64,000 nucleotides of DNA from an uncultured delta proteobacterium (GCA_963786905.1 CAWBBA010000015.1:22740-86739), one strand, 5' to 3'. Counted from the stretch's first letter, positions 1,849 through 64,000 are shown. The notes: generated by a model not told the origin, from the letters alone. Made by a program: numbers and translations.

Positions 1849-4800
1849 TCAACCAATTCCCTCTTCTGGCTCCATTTTGTCATCAAGCACTGAGCGGACG
1901 ACCTCCAGCACCTGCCGAATGTCATACGGCTTGTTGACGAACCCCTTTGCCCCTGCCGCGAGTGCATCCTTGGTCGGACCGTCTAGCCGAGTAGCCGCTG
2001 GCTGATGACCACCTTGACCGAGGGATCGAGGCTCAAGAGACCTTCGAGGCATTGCTTACCGCCCATCTCAGGCATTATGAGATCCAGGATCACCAGGGAA
2101 ATCTCTCTGCTTCGCGCTCTGGTACAGCTCCAGAGCCTCTTTGCCGTTCGAATGCCGTGATCACCTTGTACCCGGCCTTTGTGAGAATCCTCAAGCAAAG
2201 GTCCCGAATCATTGCCTCGTCATCCACGAGGAGAATGGTCTCAGATCCTCCTTGTCGGCATTGTTCCGGCGATCGTTTCCTCGTAGTTCCTCATCTGACA
2301 CGAGGGCAGGGAAATATATCTTGAAGGCGGTCCCCTGACCCGGTTCGCTGTAACACCTGATATGGCCACCGTGCTGTTGGACGATCCCGTGGACCATAGC
2401 CAGACCGAGTCCCGTTCCTTTGTCCACCGCTTTGGTCGTGTAGAAGGGCTCGAAGATGTGCTCCAGCGTCTCTTTGTCCATGCCGGCGCCGGTGTCCGTG
2501 ACCGTCAGGATCACATAGCGCCCGGGCTTGGCGTTAAGATGCGATTGGCGCATATTCCTCGTCCAGGACGATGTTGGCCGTTTCGATGACGAGCCTTCCT
2601 CCCTCAGGCATTGCGTCCCGTGCGTTCACCGCAAGATTCATCAGGATCTGATCCACCTGAGTGGGATCGGCATTGATCGTGGCCAGATCCTCAGCGAGAA
2701 AGAGCTGTATGTCGATCATCTTGGGAATGGTTCTCTCGAGCATTTTCCGCATTTCATTGATACGGCGATTCAGGTTGAGCGGCTGAGTGGTTTGATCTCC
2801 GTCTTCCTGCTGAAGGTGAGCAGTCTCCTGAACCAGGTCAGCCCCACGCCTTGCGGATTCATTTATCTTCTGGAGGTCGGCCCGGTAACGCTGCAGGCAA
2901 GTCCTCATCGCCGAGAATCAACTCGGAGTATCCGAGCGCTACTTGCAGGATGTTGTTGAAATCGTGGGCAACGCCTCCGGCAAGGGTGCCGACCGCCTCC
3001 ATCTTTTGGGCCTGAAACAGTTGCTTGGAAAGCTCCAAGTGCTCGGTAATATCGCGCTTCACAGCAACGAAGTTCACGATCTTGCCTGAGGATGTCTCTC
3101 ACAGGCGATATCGTGGCCTCCTCGTGATAGATGTGCCCATCCTTCCTTCTGTTGACTAACTGTCCTGACCAGACATGGCCTCCCAGAATGGTATCCGACA
3201 CTGCTCGTAAAACTTTCTATCATGCTCACCGCCGTGAGGAAGCGAGGCTTTTGGCCAACAGCCTCTTCCTTCGAGTAGCCCGTAATCCTCTCGAAAGCTG
3301 GGTTTACATATTGAATGGTTCCCTGTTTGTCAGTGATGACGATAGCTTCAGCAACCTGTTCCACGGCTGTTGCCAGTCTCTTCTGAGCCTCTTCCGACCG
3401 TCTGCGGGCAGTCACGTCACGAATAATCATAGTTGACTTCCACTCGCCTTCAACGTCCTTGAACAAGACCGAAGATAATTCGGCAGGGAAAACGGTCCCA
3501 TCCTTCCGTACGAAGAGGAGTTCGCCCTGAAATTTTCCAGTTCGCTTTCGCTCTTCCAATGCCATTTTCAACCTGGGGTCCGCAATATCCACAAGACTGT
3601 TTCTGCCTGCTCGACGGATTTCTTCTTCTGTCATCCCAAACAGGTGGCAAACTGCTGGATTGGCCCTCAGTTTCTGCCATCCGGTATTGTTAGCAGTATC
3701 GCGTCAAGGCTGTTTTCAAATAGCGAACGAAACTGCTCTTCACTTTCCAGAGCGCATCTTCGGATCGCTTGCGCTCGGTGATGTCTTCGAAGATCCCCAG
3801 CACACCAATGACTCGTCCATGTCTGTCCTTGTAGGGAACTTTGATAGTATGTGCCCATCGATCTTGACCGGGGAGTTGATAGGGTTCTTCAAAGTCTTTA
3901 ACCATACCGGTATCCATGCAAGCCTGGTCGTCGGCACGGTACAATTGAGCCAGTTCGGCAGGATGGAAAGCGAAGTCGTCCTTGCCTACGATCTGTTCCG
4001 GTACGATTCCCAGGTCTGCGGCGTAGTTCGTGTTGCAGGACAGGTAGACCGAATTGCGGTCTTTGAGGAAGATGCGTTGAGGAAGATGCTCAACCAGACT
4101 CCGATGGGTCTCTTCGCTCTGTCGCAGCAACTCTTCCGAATTTTTGCGCTCGGTGATGTCAGTGGCGACGTGGATGACTTTCCGGATGTTTCCTTCTTGG
4201 TCGAGGACCGGCGTACAAGTGACAAGGTAGTAGTCGCCCAGGGCCTTCATCTCCATCTCCACGCTCTCCGTCGAACCCGATTCAAGAAGAGCCTCCATCG
4301 GGCAGCCTTGAGGTCTCTTACCATTTGCATGAAAAACCTCATAGCACTTGGCATTCAGCAACTCGTCATGAGATTTGCCTGTGACCTGAATGCACTTCTT
4401 GTTGGCTGCAACAATCCCGTGTTCCAGGTCCATTATAAAGGTTGGGTGGCCTGTGGCCTGGAAAATGTTCTCCCAATCCTGGCGGGCCTCCAGGAGTTCC
4501 GCTTCGGCCTGTTGACGGCGGGCGATTTCCTCCTGCAACGCGTGATTGGCTTGCTCCAACTGGAAGACCTTTTTCTCCAGCTTGTGAATGAGAACTTCAC
4601 TGTATTCCTTGAGCAAGCCCATTTGGTGACCTTCTGGGGCCCTGGCCGGGGACAGTTCGCCGCGGGCTTTTCTTGCCAGGACTTCCCGGATGCGGGCCAT
4701 GAACGGTTCCGGCTCGACGGGTTTGACGATGAAGGCGTCCGCCCCAAGGTCCAACGCCAAGCGTTCGTCTTTGGGCTCGGTGTAGGTGGCGGTATAGACA

Positions 4801-5433: not shown

Positions 5434-7853
5434 GATCCTTGTAGCGGGAAGGTGAAGCTAAACGTGCTGCCTTTCGTCCACGTGCTTTCAGCGCTAATAT
5501 CGCCGCCCATCAAATCCGCCAGGCGTCGGCAAATTGCCAGGCCCAAGCCCGTCCCTTCGTAATTTCGCGACAGACCGGATTCAATCTGCCGGAACGGTTG
5601 AAACAAGGTCGTCAGATCATCGGGCTTTATCCCTATGCCGGTGTCGGAAACGCGGAGTCGGACGGCAGGCTGTCCGGAAGTCCCTCCGGACGATCTTGAA
5701 ATCGGGAACCAGCTCGGTCTTCAGAGCGACCTCACCGCTATCGGTAAACTTGATGGCATTATTGAGAAGGTTCAGCAGAATCTGTTCAACACGGCGCTGA
5801 TCGCCGACGGCCTCGCCAAGCCCCGGCACGATATTGCGCACGAAGGGCAAGACCTTTCTTTTCAGCCAGCGGTGCTACGATGCCTACGACCTTGTTGATA
5901 GATTCGCGCAAGTCGAACCGCTCACTGGCGACTTCAAGTTGCCCGGCTTCGATCTTGGAGATGTCGAGCACGTCGTTGATGAGCGCCAGCAAGTGACGGG
6001 AACTGGAGCGGACCATTTCGAGCTGCTTGGCCTGCTCCGGATTCAACGGCCCGGCCAGCCCTTGTAGGATGATTCCGGTGAAGCCGATGATTGAATTGAG
6101 CGGAGTGCGCAGTTCGTGCGACATAGTGGCCAGAAAGGCGGATTTGAGATTGGTCGGCCGCTTCGGCTCGCTCCTTGGCATGTGCCAATTCCCTGGTGCG
6201 CTCGGCCACGATCCGCTCCAACTCTACAGCGTGGCGGTGTGATGCCTCATTGATTTCTTCCTGCGCCCGTTTAAGTTCCGTGATGTCCGTGCCGATGCTC
6301 AGAACCTCGGCAATGTTTCCTCGCTCATCCAACACGATTCTGTTGGTCCAAGCTATCACGACGCGCTCTCCACTGCGCCGCATGTTTTCATTGACGTTTC
6401 GTTCGAACGCTTTTGGGTCCGCGAGAATCTGATCCATCAGAGGACCCAGGTCATCACCACTACTGTCCGTTACAGGGACGATCGTGCCGATAACATGGCG
6501 TCCGACGATCTCCTCGGAGGAGTAGCCAAAGAATTTCTGACCGAACTCGTTCAGAAGGTGATCTTTCCGTCGCGTGTCCAGCGCAGAATGATGCTGTTGG
6601 CGTGCTCCACAAGCTCGCGGATACTTTCGTTCGCTCTCCGCTAGCCGTGCTTCGGCCTTCTTACGGTCGGTGACGTCTCGCACCCAGACCTGAATGCCAG
6701 GTTCTTCGTCAAAAGAGAACGCCTTAGCTCTGATCTCTCCATCGAGCACAGTTCCTTCCTTTGATTGGAGTCTGACCTCATAGTGGTCTATCGCGCTTTC
6801 CCCGCGCAACCGAGCTTGCGCTCTGGCACGAGTCATTGGCTGGTCTTCAGGGTGATAGATAACCCAATGGTCCTCTCCAATGAGTTCCCCTGGTTCGTAG
6901 CCCAGCATCTCATGCAGGGGTTTGTTGGCGAAGATTATCTTGGTTCCTTTCTGCAAGAAAATCCCATCAAAACTGTCTTCCACGAGGGTCCTATACCTCT
7001 GCTCGCTCTCCCTCAGCGCTGCTTGAGCTTGATCAAGCTCGCGCCGGCGCCGCCGGATTTTCCAGTGGCCCGCACCGAGCGACAACAGTGCCAAGCCTCC
7101 GATACCGCTTTGGGCGCGCAGTTCCTCGCGTTGGTAATAGCTAAAGATCGCCTCGTCGTCCTTCATTGGCACGACCGCCCTGATACCACCGGGGATGGCC
7201 CCCTCTTGGTAGCCCTGTACCGAGTAGCATTTCAGGCATCTCGCCATGGTCTTAGTGGGTTGCATGAGCCGCAGGTGGGGCTGGCCTTCGATTAGCTCCA
7301 CTGAACTGACTTCGGCCGCGCCTCGCTCGAAGGCTTCCAGCGCTTTCCGCTCCCTAGCGACAGGGTCGTTTTCCGGCCGGATTGGCTTGAGGCTGGTGAT
7401 ATGGTCGCGATGCTCGTAGAGTTCTTTGCCCAACTCCTGCACCTGCCGGATCATGTGGGCAGGGTTCATGAGGGTCAGCGGATGGCCAGACCGTGTGGTA
7501 ATGTCCCGATCGGGTAGGTGCACCAGGTAACGATTCAGCGGAGTCTTGCCAGTTGTCGGCACATACACACCGCCGTGCATGTCAGCACCTTGACGGTACA
7601 GGAGGTCCTTTTCGAAGCAGGACCGGGCACCGATCCGCGCCATATCCTTGACCGTCCGGCGTATATGAGCCGTGGTCCACCACAAGGCCAGCACGACCGC
7701 CAGCGCCCAGATGCATGCTCTCATTGGAGCCCAACCGGGAATTAGGGGCAGGAGCAAAGGACCGGCATCGCTATGCGTAATAGCAAATCGCGATTTCGTT
7801 GTAATGGATTTCATTGAACACCTCAATTGCAGAGCAGCAGTTTGGTGTTCCAC
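5421..7853 (-). pseudogene. Sensor histidine kinase with DUF3365 (Tll0287-like) domain, PAS x2, HisKA and HATPase; frameshifted
   Basis: ORF 5934..7853 carries the DUF3365-like region (CLKCYSVQGYQEGAIPGGIRAVVPM), a TM segment and PAS domains. 5786..6181 holds HisKA (MSHELRTPLNSIIG). 5617..5850 and 5421..5606 hold HATPase ([13 protein letters not shown]). These pieces are in different frames. Confidence 0.7.
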
Positions 7854-13146: not shown

Positions 13147-14124
13147 ATGAGCGATCAGACTGATAGTTCCGGTAAAGACAAATCAAACTCCGCAAGTGAA
13201 TCTGACTCCGAAATTGCGAAGAGACCGGATTCTCAATCCGCGGAGAATCGCAGCATGCTCCCGGATCGACGCACGTTCCTAGCCGGAGCTGCGAGTGTCC
13301 TGGGGATGATGGCGGTCAGCTCGTGCTCGTGGCAGGAATTCTTTCAGCAGCAGTTTCAAAGAATGACCAAGAAGGAGATCGAAGAGACGGTCGCCCGGCT
13401 TCAGGAGGACTACAAGAAGAAATACGGAAAGGAATTCGTGGTCGGGGCAGAATCCCCCATCGACGGAACCCTCTTTCGGTACGGGCTTGATATTCAGCGT
13501 TGCATCGGCTGTCGCCGGTGCGTGTACGGCTGCGTGGAAGAGAACAACCTGTCGAGAGACCCGCAAATCCAATACATAAGAGTCCTCAGGTTCAAAGACG
13601 GAAACATGGATCTCGAAGAATCGGACATCTACTACGAACCTGAAGAGGTGCCGGAGAAGGGCTATTACTACATGCCGGTGCAATGCCAGCATTGCGCCAA
13701 CGCGCCTTGTACCAAGGTGTGCCCTGTGCGGGCAACATGGACAGAGCCCGACGGCATTGTGGTGGTCGATTACAACTGGTGTATCGGATGCCGCTACTGC
13801 ATGGCAGCGTGCCCGTACATGGGCCGATGGTTCAATTTTTCCGACCCTGGTATTCCAAGCGAGCAGGTGAATCCCAAAACTCACTATCTGGGGAATCGTC
13901 CGAGAATGCGCAATGTGGTGGAAAAGTGCACTTTTTGCATTCAGAGAGTCCGCAAAGGGATATACCCCAAATGCGTCGAGGTCTGCCCGGTCGGAGCCCG
14001 CAAGTTCGGCAATCTCCTCGATCCCAACAGCGAAATCAGCATGATCATAAAGACCAAGAGGGTCTTCCGTTTGAAGGAAGATCTGAACACGCAGCCGAAA
14101 TTTTATTACTTCTTCGCTACTTGA
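13147..14124 (+). CDS. Tat-exported four-cluster [4Fe-4S] protein (NrfC/PsrB/DmsB-like)
   Basis: Twin-arginine motif DRRTFLAGAAS. Cys clusters are CIGCRRCVYGC, CQHCANAPCTKVCP, CIGCRYCMAACP and CTFCIQRV...CVEVCP. Confidence 0.85.
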   Translation: MSDQTDSSGKDKSNSASESDSEIAKRPDSQSAENRSMLPDRRTFLAGAASVLGMMAVSSCSWQEFFQQQFQRMTKKEIEETVARLQEDYKKKYGKEFVVGAESPIDGTLFRYGLDIQRCIGCRRCVYGCVEENNLSRDPQIQYIRVLRFKDGNMDLEESDIYYEPEEVPEKGYYYMPVQCQHCANAPCTKVCPVRATWTEPDGIVVVDYNWCIGCRYCMAACPYMGRWFNFSDPGIPSEQVNPKTHYLGNRPRMRNVVEKCTFCIQRVRKGIYPKCVEVCPVGARKFGNLLDPNSEISMIIKTKRVFRLKEDLNTQPKFYYFFAT

Positions 14125-22636: not shown

Positions 22637-23101
22637 TCAAATTATTCTGCGTTTCAGGTCCGACGCGCCTGAAGCTGATTGACTGCGGGGAAACTCGGTC
22701 AGTAGCCATTCCAAGATAGCCCGCGCCTTCGTGAAATTACTCGCATCAAAATGGGCCTTACCTATGCCCAGCATCAATGACGGGATAAATTCCTCAGGTG
22801 GGAGAAAACCGACTGTCCGGTGATGCTCTTTTCCGTCACCGTCCAGCGTTATAACTGTTGGAGTGTATTGAATCACGAAACGAGTCGCCCAGGCCGCCAG
22901 AGAGTTTGTGTAAGCGCGCAGCGGTACCATGTAGCGATGAACGAACTCTACTGTGCGAGGATTGGGATACGTGACCGTATCCATCTGTTTGCACGCGGGT
23001 CAACCGGGGTTGAAGAAGTCGAGCAGCACGTGTTTTTCTTGCACCCTCGCCATAGACAGGGCCATGTCCCAATCCGTTTCCCACCTTATGTTAGCTGCCA
23101 T
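22637..23101 (-). CDS. Thioredoxin-fold (Thioredoxin_7-like) protein with in-frame UGA at the first position of the CxxC motif; candidate selenoprotein
   Basis: ORFs 23000..23296 and 22637..22984 share one frame and are separated only by TGA 23000-23002. The joined reading is MAANIRWETDWDMALSMARVQEKHVLLDFFNPG-U-PACKQMDTVTYPNPRTVEFV. GGGAG precedes ATG 23101. A SECIS-like hairpin lies downstream. Confidence 0.65.
22965..22982 (-). promoter_or_regulatory. SECIS-like hairpin GGAUAC-GGUCAC-GUAUCC
   Basis: Perfect 6-bp stem starting 18 nt after the UGA. The apical loop begins with GGUC. Confidence 0.55.
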
Positions 23102-61116: not shown

Positions 61117-62227
61117 TCAGCCTATGGCCAGGCCTTCCATGGTGGAAAAACCGCGGCCGTTCCGGAACCACATCTCCACAGGGTGTTCACGGATGTATCC
61201 GTGGCCTCCCAGGATCTGCACGCCGTAATCAACAATTTTCATAGCCTGCTCGGCGCAATACATCTTTGCCAGAGCTGCGTCACGCGTTCGCGTCTTCGTT
61301 CCGGTCCAAACGCCACGCAGCCCTCCATGCCAGCATACGCATTCCGTCCACCTCCATGGCGGATTCGGCTAACATGAAGGCAATGGATTGTCTGCTGGCA
61401 ATCGGTTCCCCGAATGCAAACCTCTCTTTGGCGTAGCCCAGAGCATACTCATAGGAAGCGCGGGCAACCCCCACGGCCATGGCACAAAGGATCGATCTTG
61501 AGAGATTGAGTAACCTCATATAATCAATCCCCTGATCTCCGCCGACCTGCCGCGATTTGGGCACTACACAGTCTTCAAATGTCACTCGAAACAACGGCAA
61601 AGAATTAAGCCCCAGGTTCTTTTCCCGCTCACATATTTTGAGGCCGGGCGTGCCATTGTCGACAATTATGGCTTTCGCCGAACTTGGCCCCCCATCTTCG
61701 GCAGCGGTGGCATAAACCAGTATTTGCTCGGCCTGATCGGCCATAGGCACCATACATTTGGCTCCATTGATGACTATCTCGTCTCCTCTTATTTGTGAGA
61801 CGGTTTGAAGATCCATCGGATCGAAAGTTATCCTCGGCTCCATTAGGGCTGCTGTGGCACGAAAAAATTGCTCCTCGCAGAATTTTGGCAGCCACTCCTC
61901 CTTTTGTTCCTCGGAACCGAATTCAAGGATGGGTAACATCATTAAGAGGGGCGAAAGAGCCCCCAGGGTGAGACTGACGTCGCCCCAGGCCAATTCCTCG
62001 GCCATGATGGCCGCAGTAAGGGCGGAACGTCCCAGCTCATATCCACCGTATTTTTCTGGGATTGCGTTGGGACAAAAGCCCAACTGCCATACCTTGTTGA
62101 GGAGGTCGGTCGGAAGTTTGGCCTCCTCGTCACAATCCCGGGCAATCGGCCTAAGCTCCTTGGCCGCAAACTTCCGGGCCATGTCCTGGATCTGCCGTTG
62201 ATCCTCGTCCAGAGTAAAACCAGCCAT
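61117..62227 (-). pseudogene. Acyl-CoA dehydrogenase, C-terminal frameshift near 61290
   Basis: ORF 61280..62284 begins (from MAGFTLDEDQRQIQDMARKFA) as an ACAD. The shifted frame supplies TRDAALAKMYCAEQAMKIVDYGVQILGGHGYIREHPVEMWFRNGRGFSTMEGLAIG* with TGA at 61117-61119. Confidence 0.8.
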
Positions 62228-62666
62228 TTGATCTCCATACGACGAATGTCTTTTCGGTGAATTGCCTTGAGATTTGAACCTCAAACGCGGTCCGCGTTAT
62301 GACCTGACATTGGCTTGCCCACGTATCATGTACCACTTGTTAAGTTAGAGGTATAGCGCGTTTGTCTCCCAAGAGTGGCGAGAGGTCTCCCGGTTAAGCC
62401 TGGCAAAACTACGGAACCATCTCTGCCGGTAGAACTGCCGGCAAAAACATCCGAGTACTGTTCCCTCCACGGAGGCAGCGTGCCGGGCGATGTGCCAGAT
62501 GGGTAATTAGAGTACCCCTCAAGAAATTCCTATGTAAAATGAAGGGCAGACGTGACCCCGGCTTGCGGGGGGCGCCCACCAATATTGGGGGCGGGGAGGT
62601 ATGGATTGAGATCTACGATGCCCCCTCGGGTTCCTACGTCGTTATGAGCCGCCCTACTAACTACGG

Positions 62667-62825
62667 ATAAGAAGGTCGGGAGTTCGAATCTCTCAGGGCG
62701 CACCAGAAACAAATAAAGCTACGGTACTTTCCGTAGCTTTTGTTTTTTCAATAGCCCGCGGCATTTGCGAGAAACTGGACGAGCGGAAATAAGTATGGTG
62801 TCCCTGGAATTACCGGAATTATTGG
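62667..62825 (+). repeat. Direct repeat copy 1: tRNA-Arg-like 3' fragment (62667-62705, ending CCA) plus terminator hairpin plus about 80 nt
   Basis: ATAAGAAGGTCGGGAGTTCGAATCTCTCAGGGCGCACCA corresponds to the anticodon-stem 3' strand, variable loop, T-arm and acceptor 3' strand. No matching 5' half, D-arm or anticodon arm is found upstream. Confidence 0.7.
62715..62748 (+). terminator. Hairpin AAAGCTACGG-N6-CCGTAGCTTT followed by TGTTTTTT
   Basis: Read directly from the sequence, immediately after the tRNA-like fragment. Confidence 0.6.
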
Positions 62826-62878
62826 CGGAGAACCTCATTTTGCTGAGGTCCTCCTTTGTAGCGCGATAATCTTACCCT

Positions 62879-63160
62879 CTATTGATTGCTTGGTTTTGAT
62901 TTGGAAGATTGGTTCTTGGATTTTGAAGTCTTGGTCCGCACTTGCGTGTACTCGGGTTGACCCTGAGACCCGTAGTCTCCGTATCCATATCCATCGCCAT
63001 ATTTGTACCCTTCTTCTCCATAAGAAGGCCCCGCCGTATAGCCGCTGCCCCCTGACCAGGGGACACAGTTCCATCAGCTCGCCTCAACTCCGTAAGGTAT
63101 CGCCGCGATGGCAAACACAGCCATCAAACGAAATAACTTAGCAGGATTTATCCACTGCAT
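62879..63160 (-). CDS. Small secreted Gly/Tyr-rich protein with in-frame UGA just after the signal peptide (S-U-W-N-C); candidate selenoprotein
   Basis: AAGGAGG precedes ATG 63160. The reading is MQWINPAKLFRLMAVFAIAAIPYGVEAS, then TGA (63074-63076), then in the same frame WNCVPWSGGSGYTAGPSYGEEGYKYGDGYGYGDYGSQGQPEYTQVRTKTSKSKNQSSKSKPSNQ, ending with TAG at 62879-62881. G-first codon periodicity holds in this frame, and a SECIS-like hairpin lies downstream of the UGA. Confidence 0.5.
63047..63064 (-). promoter_or_regulatory. SECIS-like hairpin GUCCCCU-GGUC-AGGGGGC
   Basis: 7-bp stem (one G-U pair) with tetraloop GGUC. The loop starts 17 nt after the UGA. Confidence 0.5.
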
Positions 63161-63504
63161 CCTTTCCTCCTTCCCAACAACACATGACTCGCAAGAGCGT
63201 AACATGTACCCCACCAGGAGATGTTTGTCATCCTTTTTTGCCGATGGCTCCAGGCCAAGTGCTACCCCTCGGCAATACTCATGTCCAATAAGTCCTTTCG
63301 TTCCAGAGGAATCGCGTGCCGCATATTGGTCGCCCATGACTCCTGTGTCCACGGGTGTCCATATTGATCACTATAAGCGGTCTGATCCAGTGTGCCGAAT
63401 GTAACAGGAAATAAAGGCAGTCCCTCCCATGATGTTATTAACAAAGAACTGCCCAATTGTACCTCGGTTACAATCTGTGCAAACGGTAGGACTGCCCACT
63501 ACCG

Positions 63505-63661
63505 ATCAGAAGGTCGGGAGTTCGAATCTCTTAGGGCGCACCAAGAAAAAGCAAAAGCTGCGGGTACGTTCCGTAGCTTTTGTTTTTCAATAGCCCACGG
63601 CGTTTTCGAGACATTTCACGAGCGGAAATAAGTGTCCCTGCAATTACGATGGAATTACGGG
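63505..63661 (+). repeat. Direct repeat copy 2: tRNA-Arg-like 3' fragment (63505-63543) plus terminator hairpin (63554-63588) plus about 70 nt
   Basis: ATCAGAAGGTCGGGAGTTCGAATCTCTTAGGGCGCACCA, then AAAGCTGCGG...CCGTAGCTTTTGTTTTT, CAATAGCCCACGG and GAGCGGAAATAAGTGTCCCTG. By eye it is about 80% identical to copy 1. Confidence 0.7.
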
Positions 63662-63675
63662 GCTAAGGGAGCGTG

Positions 63676-63936
63676 CTATTTGTCCTTTTCTTTGAGGGCC
63701 TTGGTCTTTTTGTCGAAATCTGCCCAGAATTTCCGGTCGCATTCCTGCATGCAAGCTTCATAATTGCCCTGCATCATGGGAATGAGTTTCCCTTCGTGCG
63801 GGACCTGCCCGAAATTATAACGCCATGGCAATCCTCTGCAGTCCCCATAGCAGTCCTCAATATTAAAATCCGTGTATCCTGCGTTAGGCAGCAAAAGGGC
63901 GGCGAAGATCAATCCCATGACCAAACGTTTTGCCAT
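63676..63936 (-). CDS. Small secreted Cys-rich hypothetical protein
   Basis: MAKRLVMGLIFAALLLPNAGY signal, then EDCYGDCRGLPWRYNF...ACMQECDRKFW. I recognise no family. Confidence 0.4.
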   Translation of the reverse strand: MAKRLVMGLIFAALLLPNAGYTDFNIEDCYGDCRGLPWRYNFGQVPHEGKLIPMMQGNYEACMQECDRKFWADFDKKTKALKEKDK

Positions 63937-64000
63937 GAATCCCTCTATTTCCAATTATCCCAGTCGCCGGAATTATGCGGCAGTCCTGCCGTTTCGAAGC

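Follow-up and report, generated by a model that had tools for sequence, protein, structure and literature searches.

An in-frame UGA in a small secreted-peptide gene of an uncultured delta proteobacterium is probably a selenocysteine codon of a new peptide family

Does the UGA that interrupts a short reading frame near one end of a 64,000-nucleotide (nt) stretch of DNA from an uncultured delta proteobacterium (GCA_963786905.1, CAWBBA010000015.1:22740-86739; below, the window) end translation, or is it read as selenocysteine (Sec; U in peptide sequences)? The gene in question occupies positions 62879 to 63160 of the minus strand, from an ATG (63160-63158) to a TAG (62881-62879), and an initial annotation had proposed it as a small secreted selenoprotein. 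Its anatomy was found as described there. A Shine-Dalgarno sequence, AAGGAGG (63172-63166), lies five bases 5' of the ATG, and codons 1 to 28 (63077-63160) encode a Sec-type signal peptide, MQWINPAKLFRLMAVFAIAAIPYGVEAS, recognized from its translation and from the ratio of nonsynonymous to synonymous polymorphism (pN/pS); its layout is MQWINPAKLFRLMAVFAIAAIPYGVEA followed by S, comprising an n-region with K/R, then a hydrophobic core, and finally a cleavage-type end, V-E-A before S. The TGA (63076-63074) is codon 29. Translation confirmed that the same frame then stays open for 64 codons (62882-63073), running WNCVPWSGG...KPSNQ through a Gly/Tyr/Ser/Glu-rich part to the basic tail VRTKTSKSKNQSSKSKPSNQ; the predicted product contains the peptides GPSYGEEGYK and YGDGYGYGDYGSQGQPEYTQVR. 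The Cys of the U-W-N-C (U-x-x-C) motif is encoded by TGT at 63067-63065. We put the probability that a small exported selenoprotein is really encoded at this locus at about 0.75 and, judging from sequence comparisons, that it is a genuine Sec-encoding gene of a new family at about 0.75 to 0.8.

The relatives of the gene bear most directly on the question. A word-indexed search with the read-through protein, in which U was replaced by C, returned two clusters. One (P0001) is a full-length relative of 90 amino acids (aa) with C-S-S-C where the window has U-W-N-C, and the other (P0002) is an open reading frame (ORF) that begins at an upstream GTG and terminates, after ...GVEAS, on the same UGA. 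Four loci with DNA (L001 to L004) came from scans of the metagenome and genome collections. Three of these (L001, L002, and L003) carry TGA at the same codon within U-W-N-C or U-W-S-C, together with the same downstream hairpin and the same TAG stop; the source of L003 is a metagenome-assembled genome (MAG) of an uncultured 'delta proteobacterium' (contig CAVUIT010000015). The fourth, L004, which corresponds to P0001 and comes from a Desulfomonilaceae MAG, has TGC at the UGA codon and is the closest Cys form. An additional relative of 94 aa, P0003, shows W in the UGA column, while its DNA from four wetland samples (L005 to L008) has TGA and the hairpin; therefore, the gene caller had applied genetic code 4. 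The public gene call for L005 to L008, 332 nt long, reads the UGA as Trp and passes two stops to a later TGA, and such miscalled genes of the P0003 type can seed false 'W' homologues in protein databases. Altogether, five distinct UGA sequences (the window, L001, L002, L003, and L005 to L008), 74 to 91% identical to one another and obtained in independent projects, keep the codon, which excludes a sequencing error. Conservation of the UGA in at least two orthologous sequences has served as a criterion for new selenoproteins (PMC1976440), and it is seen here. Homologues that end at this position for lack of coding beyond it, which the initial annotation had named as a possible refutation, were not what we found: reading frame, stop, and hairpin are kept in all five UGA sequences.

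Sequences with Cys in place of the UGA extend well beyond L004. An exhaustive phmmer search with P0001 added P0003 and distant relatives of 85 to 92 aa with C-A-C, C-P-A-C, or C-P-L-C, and a profile search gathered 45 clusters, all of them 'hypothetical proteins' of 81 to 122 aa, several from Desulfomonile or Deltaproteobacteria MAGs. Profile E values for the resulting unnamed family (P0004 to P0046), which includes HY912_04440 of the MAG Desulfomonile tiedjei, ranged from 1e-13 to 1e-39. The shared architecture, seen in an alignment of 37 sequences (A5), comprises a signal peptide ending in ...EA[AG], a Cys pair, S[GR][IV]GQSNGYY or GGGSSSY, YG repeats, and a KSKK..K.KP.AQ tail. In this alignment the second Cys is invariant (37 of 37), and the first column is Cys in 35 of the 37, one exception being P0003. 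Some 40 more distant members have Cys at the Sec column, as C-x-C or C-x-x-C just past the signal peptide, with about half of the family having C-x-C rather than C-x-x-C. The presence of Cys homologues at the UGA column is the standard in silico test for a new selenoprotein family (PMC1976440; deep-Sep, PMC12013277). The window protein itself shows the signal peptide, the pair at the mature N terminus, the G/Y/S-rich middle, the basic K/S/P tail, and homology to the family by phmmer, by profiles, and in alignments A3 and A5. It resembles P0004 to P0046 in the signal peptide, the mature N-terminal pair, the GQSNGYY/GGSSY and YG-rich middle, and the KSKK..K.KP..Q tail; it differs in that those proteins have Cys (C-A-C, C-P-A-C, or C-P-L-C), lack the hairpin, and are encoded in a gene cluster with mccSep (described below), whereas the window clade has U-W-N-C or U-W-S-C and is free-standing. 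The family had not been recognized in the initial annotation, and we found no match to it in Pfam, in NCBIfam (including the dedicated selenoprotein models), or among PDB sequences. On these sequence grounds, the window gene appears to represent a Sec-containing clade of an unnamed family of Cys-pair peptides, and this family of secreted peptides of 81 to 122 aa is apparently confined to Desulfomonilaceae-like Desulfobacterota.

A stem-loop follows the UGA directly. Its apical part, the 7-bp hairpin GUCCCCU-GGUC-AGGGGGC (63064-63047), begins 9 nt past the TGA, as had been described, and its loop begins 16 nt past the UGA. The GGUC tetraloop matches the SelB-bound apical loop of the selenocysteine insertion sequence (SECIS) of Escherichia coli fdhF and Moorella fdhA. 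The spacing range of bSECISearch is 16 to 37 nt, so that the loop start falls inside it. In the minimum free energy fold (-16.7 kcal/mol for 48 nt), the stem is extended to 11 bp with one bulge, and a lower stem includes the A of the UGA, giving a SECIS-like element at about 63038 to 63074 (minus strand) that we defined from folds, conservation, and rarity. Taken alone, a 66-nt fold is only mildly unusual (z = -1.9 versus shuffles). Tetraloops of GGTC on a stem of at least 6 bp occur three times in the window, both strands counted, and a comparable G-loop hairpin lies 12 to 27 nt downstream of 1.3% of the window's 2,233 TGA triplets. The hairpin is kept in every UGA form (the window, L001 to L003, and L005 to L008), and folds of the distant Cys forms L009 and L011 to L014 showed none after the Cys codon; this is the pattern of conservation that the initial annotation had asked for. 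The consensus structure is kept in six sequences with one compensatory pair. A conserved G in the apical loop is a feature of bacterial SECIS elements (PMC1976440), and the window element is a stem-loop directly 3' of the UGA with such a G at canonical spacing.

Several findings weigh against the reading of the UGA as a Sec codon. The close Cys form L004 retains a strong hairpin, UCCGC-CGGUCA-GCGGA, with a compensatory change from C-G to G-C. After the UGA, pN/pS does not favour the gene frame (0.66) over two other frames. The initial annotation had cautioned, correctly, that the other minus-strand frames are open here; frame +1 and one antisense frame were found open over this part too, and the openness of the ORF is therefore weak evidence. 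Finally, no selA, selB, selC, or selD was seen in the 64-kb window, where ARAGORN found no tRNA at all.

The hairpin of L004 means either that the stem-loop may have a role independent of Sec or that L004 is a recent revertant from Sec to Cys; we read it as a recent reversion that carries a SECIS fossil, with a Sec-independent role of the structure as the alternative. A further explanation is that a module of about 490 bp around the gene acts mainly as RNA, either as a small or regulatory RNA or as an attenuator hairpin, and that the ORF is secondary. The leader and the 3' part are indeed highly conserved in nucleotides, the module recurs in unrelated contexts, and the hairpin is kept even in a Cys form. 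We nevertheless give this explanation the smallest share of all those considered, given the strong ribosome-binding site and ATG, the signal peptide with its coding signature, the distant protein homologues whose DNA has diverged and has no hairpin, and the lack of a match to an Rfam family. In Rfam searches nothing in the window reached the gathering threshold, and nothing meaningful appeared in E-value mode on 62300 to 64000.

Coding on both sides of the UGA was examined in the aligned DNA. The signal-peptide part has a pN/pS of 0.39 in the gene frame versus 0.9 to 1.2 in the other frames, indicating purifying selection. Since pN/pS failed to discriminate among the frames of the tail, we adopted a test of stop avoidance and indels there. 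Past the UGA there are three or four indel events, of 3, 3, and 12 nt, all in frame. The gene frame is prone to stops, with 7.5% of single-base changes after the UGA creating one, compared with 2.5% in frame +1; over at least 66 substitutions in six sequences we counted no internal stop, where about five would be expected under neutrality. The TAG is kept in five of the six sequences, and the only new stop is that of L005, a TAA one codon earlier, which costs the last residue. The UGA forms share their stop position with the Cys form, which reads from ATG to that common stop, and an indel that joins the signal peptide to another frame, raised as a concern in the initial annotation, was not present. 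The alignment also shows that the peptide after the UGA is homologous to the tails of the approximately 40 intact Cys-form proteins. The undistinctive pN/pS of the tail fits a disordered, low-complexity sequence but proves nothing. The 'clear' G-first codon periodicity claimed earlier held only in part: position 1 is mildly enriched in G (31%) but is nearly as rich in T (30%), and the clearest signal is the scarcity of T (3%) at position 2.

These results bear on the simplest alternative, that the UGA is a true stop, with the locus being either a nonsense pseudogene of a Cys ancestor or a gene for a hydrophobic peptide of 28 residues, and the open frame downstream a compositional accident. Such a reading draws on the other open frames, on a tail pN/pS that does not single out the gene frame, and on the occurrence of at least one frameshifted gene, an acyl-CoA dehydrogenase, in the window. 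We consider it improbable, since five diverged sequences keep TGA, frame, stop position, and hairpin, internal stops are missing where about five are expected, the indels are all in frame, and the downstream peptide is homologous to intact proteins; moreover, a product of 28 residues would be a bare signal peptide.

If the UGA is recoded, Sec is not the only amino acid to be considered. Cys could be inserted by a selC*-type tRNA(Cys)UCA, or Trp by near-cognate read-through. A selC* tRNA(Cys) with anticodon UCA is found in deltaproteobacteria, for example Desulfococcus biacutus (PMC5389517), and Cys is functionally acceptable at the UGA position in relatives. Against this, the UGA forms specifically keep a GGUC hairpin of the SECIS type at canonical spacing, no selC*-type tRNA is present in the window, and the same study uses D. 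tiedjei as an example of a Sec-containing selD and not of selC* (PMC5389517). A non-Sec decoding of this codon is accordingly very improbable, even more so than a true stop. The use of Sec in the lineage is indirectly supported by that Sec codon in selD of D. tiedjei, whose family, the Desulfomonilaceae, is also that of the related MAGs, and by the related loci that we fetched, which hold mccSep genes interrupted by UGA.

Indirect support also comes from the window itself, which contains a second UGA candidate, a thioredoxin-like ORF on the minus strand (ATG 23101 to stop 22637) with FNPG-U-PAC at TGA 23002-23000. It matches PF13098 (E = 5e-12) and, weakly, the NCBIfam selenoprotein models TsoB and VPGUxxT thioredoxin-like, and a 7-bp hairpin, GGAUACG-GUCA-CGUAUCC, lies 17 nt past its TGA. 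By sequence, this ORF (22637-23101) is probably a second selenoprotein gene of the window. The identity of its loop with that of the peptide gene, stated in the initial annotation, did not stand: the loop is GUCA here, and the two elements have the pentamer GGUCA in common, shifted by one base. Among the other hits of the hairpin scan, candidates at 13488(+), 43174(+), 57899(-), and 11882(-) were rejected for implausible translations. The hairpin GCAUUCA-GGUC-UGGGUGC at 6673-6711 (-) looks like that of fdhF, but the TGA 18 nt upstream of it is out of frame with an uninterrupted ORF of 639 aa (5934-7853), and it probably arose by chance.

With the UGA read as Sec, the gene very probably encodes a secreted, unstructured peptide of about 65 residues with Sec as its second residue. 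By the -3/-1 rule, signal peptidase I most likely cleaves V-E-A from S, which would place Sec, residue 29 of the precursor, at position 2 of the mature peptide. AlphaFold2, run with the 37-sequence alignment, predicted a helix at residues 6 to 19 only, with a mean predicted local distance difference test score (pLDDT) of 56 and about 50 past the signal helix; the mature part, Gly/Tyr/Ser-rich with a Lys-rich tail, is therefore predicted to be disordered. No thioredoxin-like domain was found around the UxxC in Pfam, NCBIfam, or PDB searches, and the AlphaFold2 model has no secondary structure past the signal helix. The product would thus be a small exported unstructured peptide in which the N-terminal Sec/Cys-Cys pair is the sole strictly conserved chemistry. 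Two other readings of the precursor were set aside. A lipoprotein, cleaved by signal peptidase II at a lipobox ([LVI][ASTVI][GAS]-C, free of charged residues at -3 and -4), is unlikely because of the Glu at -3 in the window's V-E-A-S-U; inspected by eye, most relatives have E-A-[AG]-C, and only a few (P0007 and the P0008 group) fit the PROSITE-type pattern. A precursor of a ribosomally synthesized and posttranslationally modified peptide was rejected on account of the typical Sec signal peptide at the N terminus and the lack of adjacent maturase genes.

The genomic surroundings differ between the Sec and the Cys clades. Comparison of the window with L001, L003, and L004 by blastn gave 80 to 85% identity from 62827 to 63315, 63248, or 63312, with unrelated flanks, and no common neighbouring genes were found among the Sec-clade loci, whose contexts are unrelated. 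Homology is limited to about 490 bp, and the Sec clade is therefore a free-standing module. In L003, an IS3-family transposase (orfA/orfB, 2851-4015) lies approximately 1 kb upstream of the selenopeptide gene, which fits a variable or mobile location. In contrast, the Cys-clade gene lies 95 to 700 nt downstream of a gene for a cytochrome with five CxxCH motifs in each of the seven loci for which context is available (L009, L011 to L014, and the P0044 and P0032 contigs). The ORF of this cytochrome is itself broken by an in-frame UGA (...AGHRIPDG-U-PSKTQVV...), and it aligns to the sequences of the MccSep crystal structures (9wt8 and 9wt9) with E = 5e-63, including the D-G-U-P catalytic loop. 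A PF04060 FeS protein is sometimes encoded between mccSep and the Cys-clade gene. The mccSep homologues of L014 (532-1746), L009 (6083-7315), and L013 (4059-5318) are divided by their annotation into a cytochrome gene for about 300 aa and an ORF of 98 aa, which the UGA joins into a single frame. Other genes of the cluster encode thioredoxins, DsbD_TM, Thioredoxin_3, rhodanese, MauE/DoxX, DGC, a HEAT protein, and DUF4405, and downstream follows either a HAMP-cyclase with ArsR-type regulators and a MacB ABC system or ArsC-ArsR-Acr3.

MccSep (GSU2937-2936) is a periplasmic five-heme Sec polysulfide reductase that is essential for the respiration of elemental sulfur (S0) in Geobacter (Sci Adv 2026, PMC13510729), and D. 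tiedjei has a homologue (PMC13510729). From these surroundings, we tentatively suggest, at well below even odds, that the periplasmic selenol/thiol pair attacks sulfane sulfur (polysulfide or S0), and possibly selenium or another soft metalloid, as a nucleophile, or acts on it as a redox relay. Decoding would be classical: translation would start at ATG 63160, and the UGA at 63076-63074 would be read as Sec by SelB and Sec-tRNA(Sec), recruited through the GGUC stem-loop acting as a bacterial SECIS. The precursor of 93 residues would leave by Sec-pathway export and be cleaved after V-E-A. Sec insertion is compatible with export because the UGA would be decoded before the signal peptide leaves the ribosome, and MccSep offers a precedent for an exported selenoprotein. 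The resulting peptide of about 65 residues would begin with S-U-W-N-C, go on with a disordered Gly/Tyr/Ser-rich segment, and end in a basic tail rich in Lys and Ser. Sulfur might travel on it as a selenotrisulfide or persulfide adduct, or it might pass on reducing equivalents, in a pathway of MccSep with thioredoxin, DsbD, and rhodanese, with the disordered basic tail keeping it soluble or binding it to surfaces; the free-standing, more nucleophilic version would be that of the Sec clade.

Some of the context speaks against this assignment. Searches by tblastn with the cluster proteins found no mccSep in the window, and neither mccSep nor cluster genes near the window gene (the window ends at 64000) or near L001 to L008. 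The functional proposal is consequently transferred from paralogues, since the Sec-clade loci have neither mccSep, nor the cluster, nor common neighbours. The synteny with mccSep may in part reflect relatedness, given few samples and related genomes, and arsC, arsR, and acr3 are also adjacent in some loci. These last genes point to the main functional rival, in which the protein is a real selenoprotein that binds or detoxifies metals or metalloids (As, Hg, Cu, Se, or Te) through its N-terminal U/C-x-x-C. Soft metals are classically bound by a CxxC ligand pair; an ArsC of the low-molecular-weight phosphatase type, ArsR (HTH_5), and Acr3/SBF are encoded after the Cys-form gene in the D. tiedjei MAG; the cluster repeatedly includes ArsR-type regulators, DGC, Thioredoxin_3, and a MacB-type ABC exporter; and MccSep also reduces selenite. 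However, mccSep, with or without the FeS protein, is the sole neighbour common to the seven loci, the ars genes vary, and about half of the family has C-x-C instead of C-x-x-C. We regard a metal or metalloid role as possible and rather unlikely, somewhat behind the handling of sulfane sulfur.

Comparison with known systems places the peptide apart from its nearest analogues. It is like the bacterial redox selenoproteins with UxxC or CxxU (thioredoxin-, DsbA-, and peroxiredoxin-like, with the fdhF SECIS as archetype) in having a UGA with a Cys three residues away, Cys homologues, a stem-loop directly 3' with a loop of the GGUC type at a similar distance, and a host among the selenoprotein-rich Desulfobacterota. 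It differs from them in that it has no recognized fold and that Sec is residue 2 of a secreted mini-peptide, not part of an enzyme active site. MccSep and the window product would both be exported Sec proteins of Desulfobacterota, and genes of the Cys-clade relatives lie directly downstream of mccSep homologues; the two proteins are unrelated in sequence, MccSep is a 49-kDa heme enzyme, and the window gene does not lie beside mccSep. SgpA, SgpB, and SgpC of purple sulfur bacteria are small proteins exported by signal peptides, carry Gly/Tyr repeats, and are linked to extracytoplasmic elemental sulfur. No N-terminal Cys/Sec pair or Lys-rich tail is known in Sgp proteins, and the window peptide may be likened to them in composition only.

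Nearly all bacterial selenoproteins described so far are folded redox enzymes. A disordered exported mini-peptide with Sec at position 2 would extend the known uses of selenocysteine, and what is new at this locus is the protein family, as judged against Pfam, NCBIfam, and PDB, the decoding mechanism being classical. More than 100 bacterial selenoprotein families have been catalogued (111; BSepDB, PMC13326102). A bolder and doubtful extension, to which we assign about the same low odds as to the metal-binding role, is that the peptide belongs to a new functional class, a secreted, disordered, nonenzymatic selenopeptide whose N-terminal pair attacks S0, polysulfide, or selenium outside the cytoplasm and carries the covalent adduct to MccSep-like enzymes, or which nucleates or coats chalcogen particles. 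If true, the family would supply the component for periplasmic sulfur transfer that is missing from MccSep-type S0 respiration, with a gene that is mobile as a 490-bp module. The Cys paralogues, as partners of MccSep, would be concrete candidates for the unidentified periplasmic sulfur-handling step of S0 respiration. Standard annotation always misses this gene, which is truncated, placed in a wrong frame, or read with Trp under code 4 (as in P0002 and P0003).

The conserved module (62827-63315, minus strand), delimited by blastn and alignment A2, consists of leader, ORF, and 3' hairpin. The leader or promoter region, including the AAGGAGG, is nearly invariant over five loci (63161-63260), and a scan for consensus sigma-70 sites gave none directly upstream of the gene. 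At the other end, a short hairpin 30 nt past the stop (62832-62849), found on the plus strand by the terminator scan and palindromic, closes the module. Farther on lies a bidirectional hairpin resembling an intrinsic terminator, AAAGCTACGG-loop-CCGTAGCTTT, with T-runs on both strands (62715-62740), which is the probable end of the transcript and belongs to a repeat also present at 63555-63587. Two units of about 175 nt (62660-62830 and 63498-63670, in the plus sense), approximately 85% identical and 838 nt apart, bracket the selenopeptide gene. Each comprises the 3' 45 nt of a tRNA (the 3' side of the anticodon stem, the T-arm GGTCGGGAGTTCGAATCTC, the acceptor end, and CCA), a bidirectional terminator, and a further 100 nt or so. 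Neither has the 5' half of the tRNA, and both copies recur in L002. Possible origins are att sites left over from tandem integrations, or duplication of a cassette boundary.

The acyl-CoA dehydrogenase gene (61117-62284, minus strand) is split into an ORF of 334 aa (61280-62284) and a C-terminal ORF of 48 aa in another frame (61117-61263) by a frameshift, which marks either a pseudogene or an assembly indel, consistent with the frameshifts previously remarked on in this window. Just upstream of the selenopeptide gene is a second small secreted ORF (63676-63954, minus strand), with a probable start at MAKRLVMGLIFAALLLPNAGY..., six Cys, and a Lys-rich end, which gave no match in Pfam or NCBIfam and is followed by the other copy of the repeat with the tRNA fragment. 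The contig of P0002 has a gene of 92 aa at the same position.

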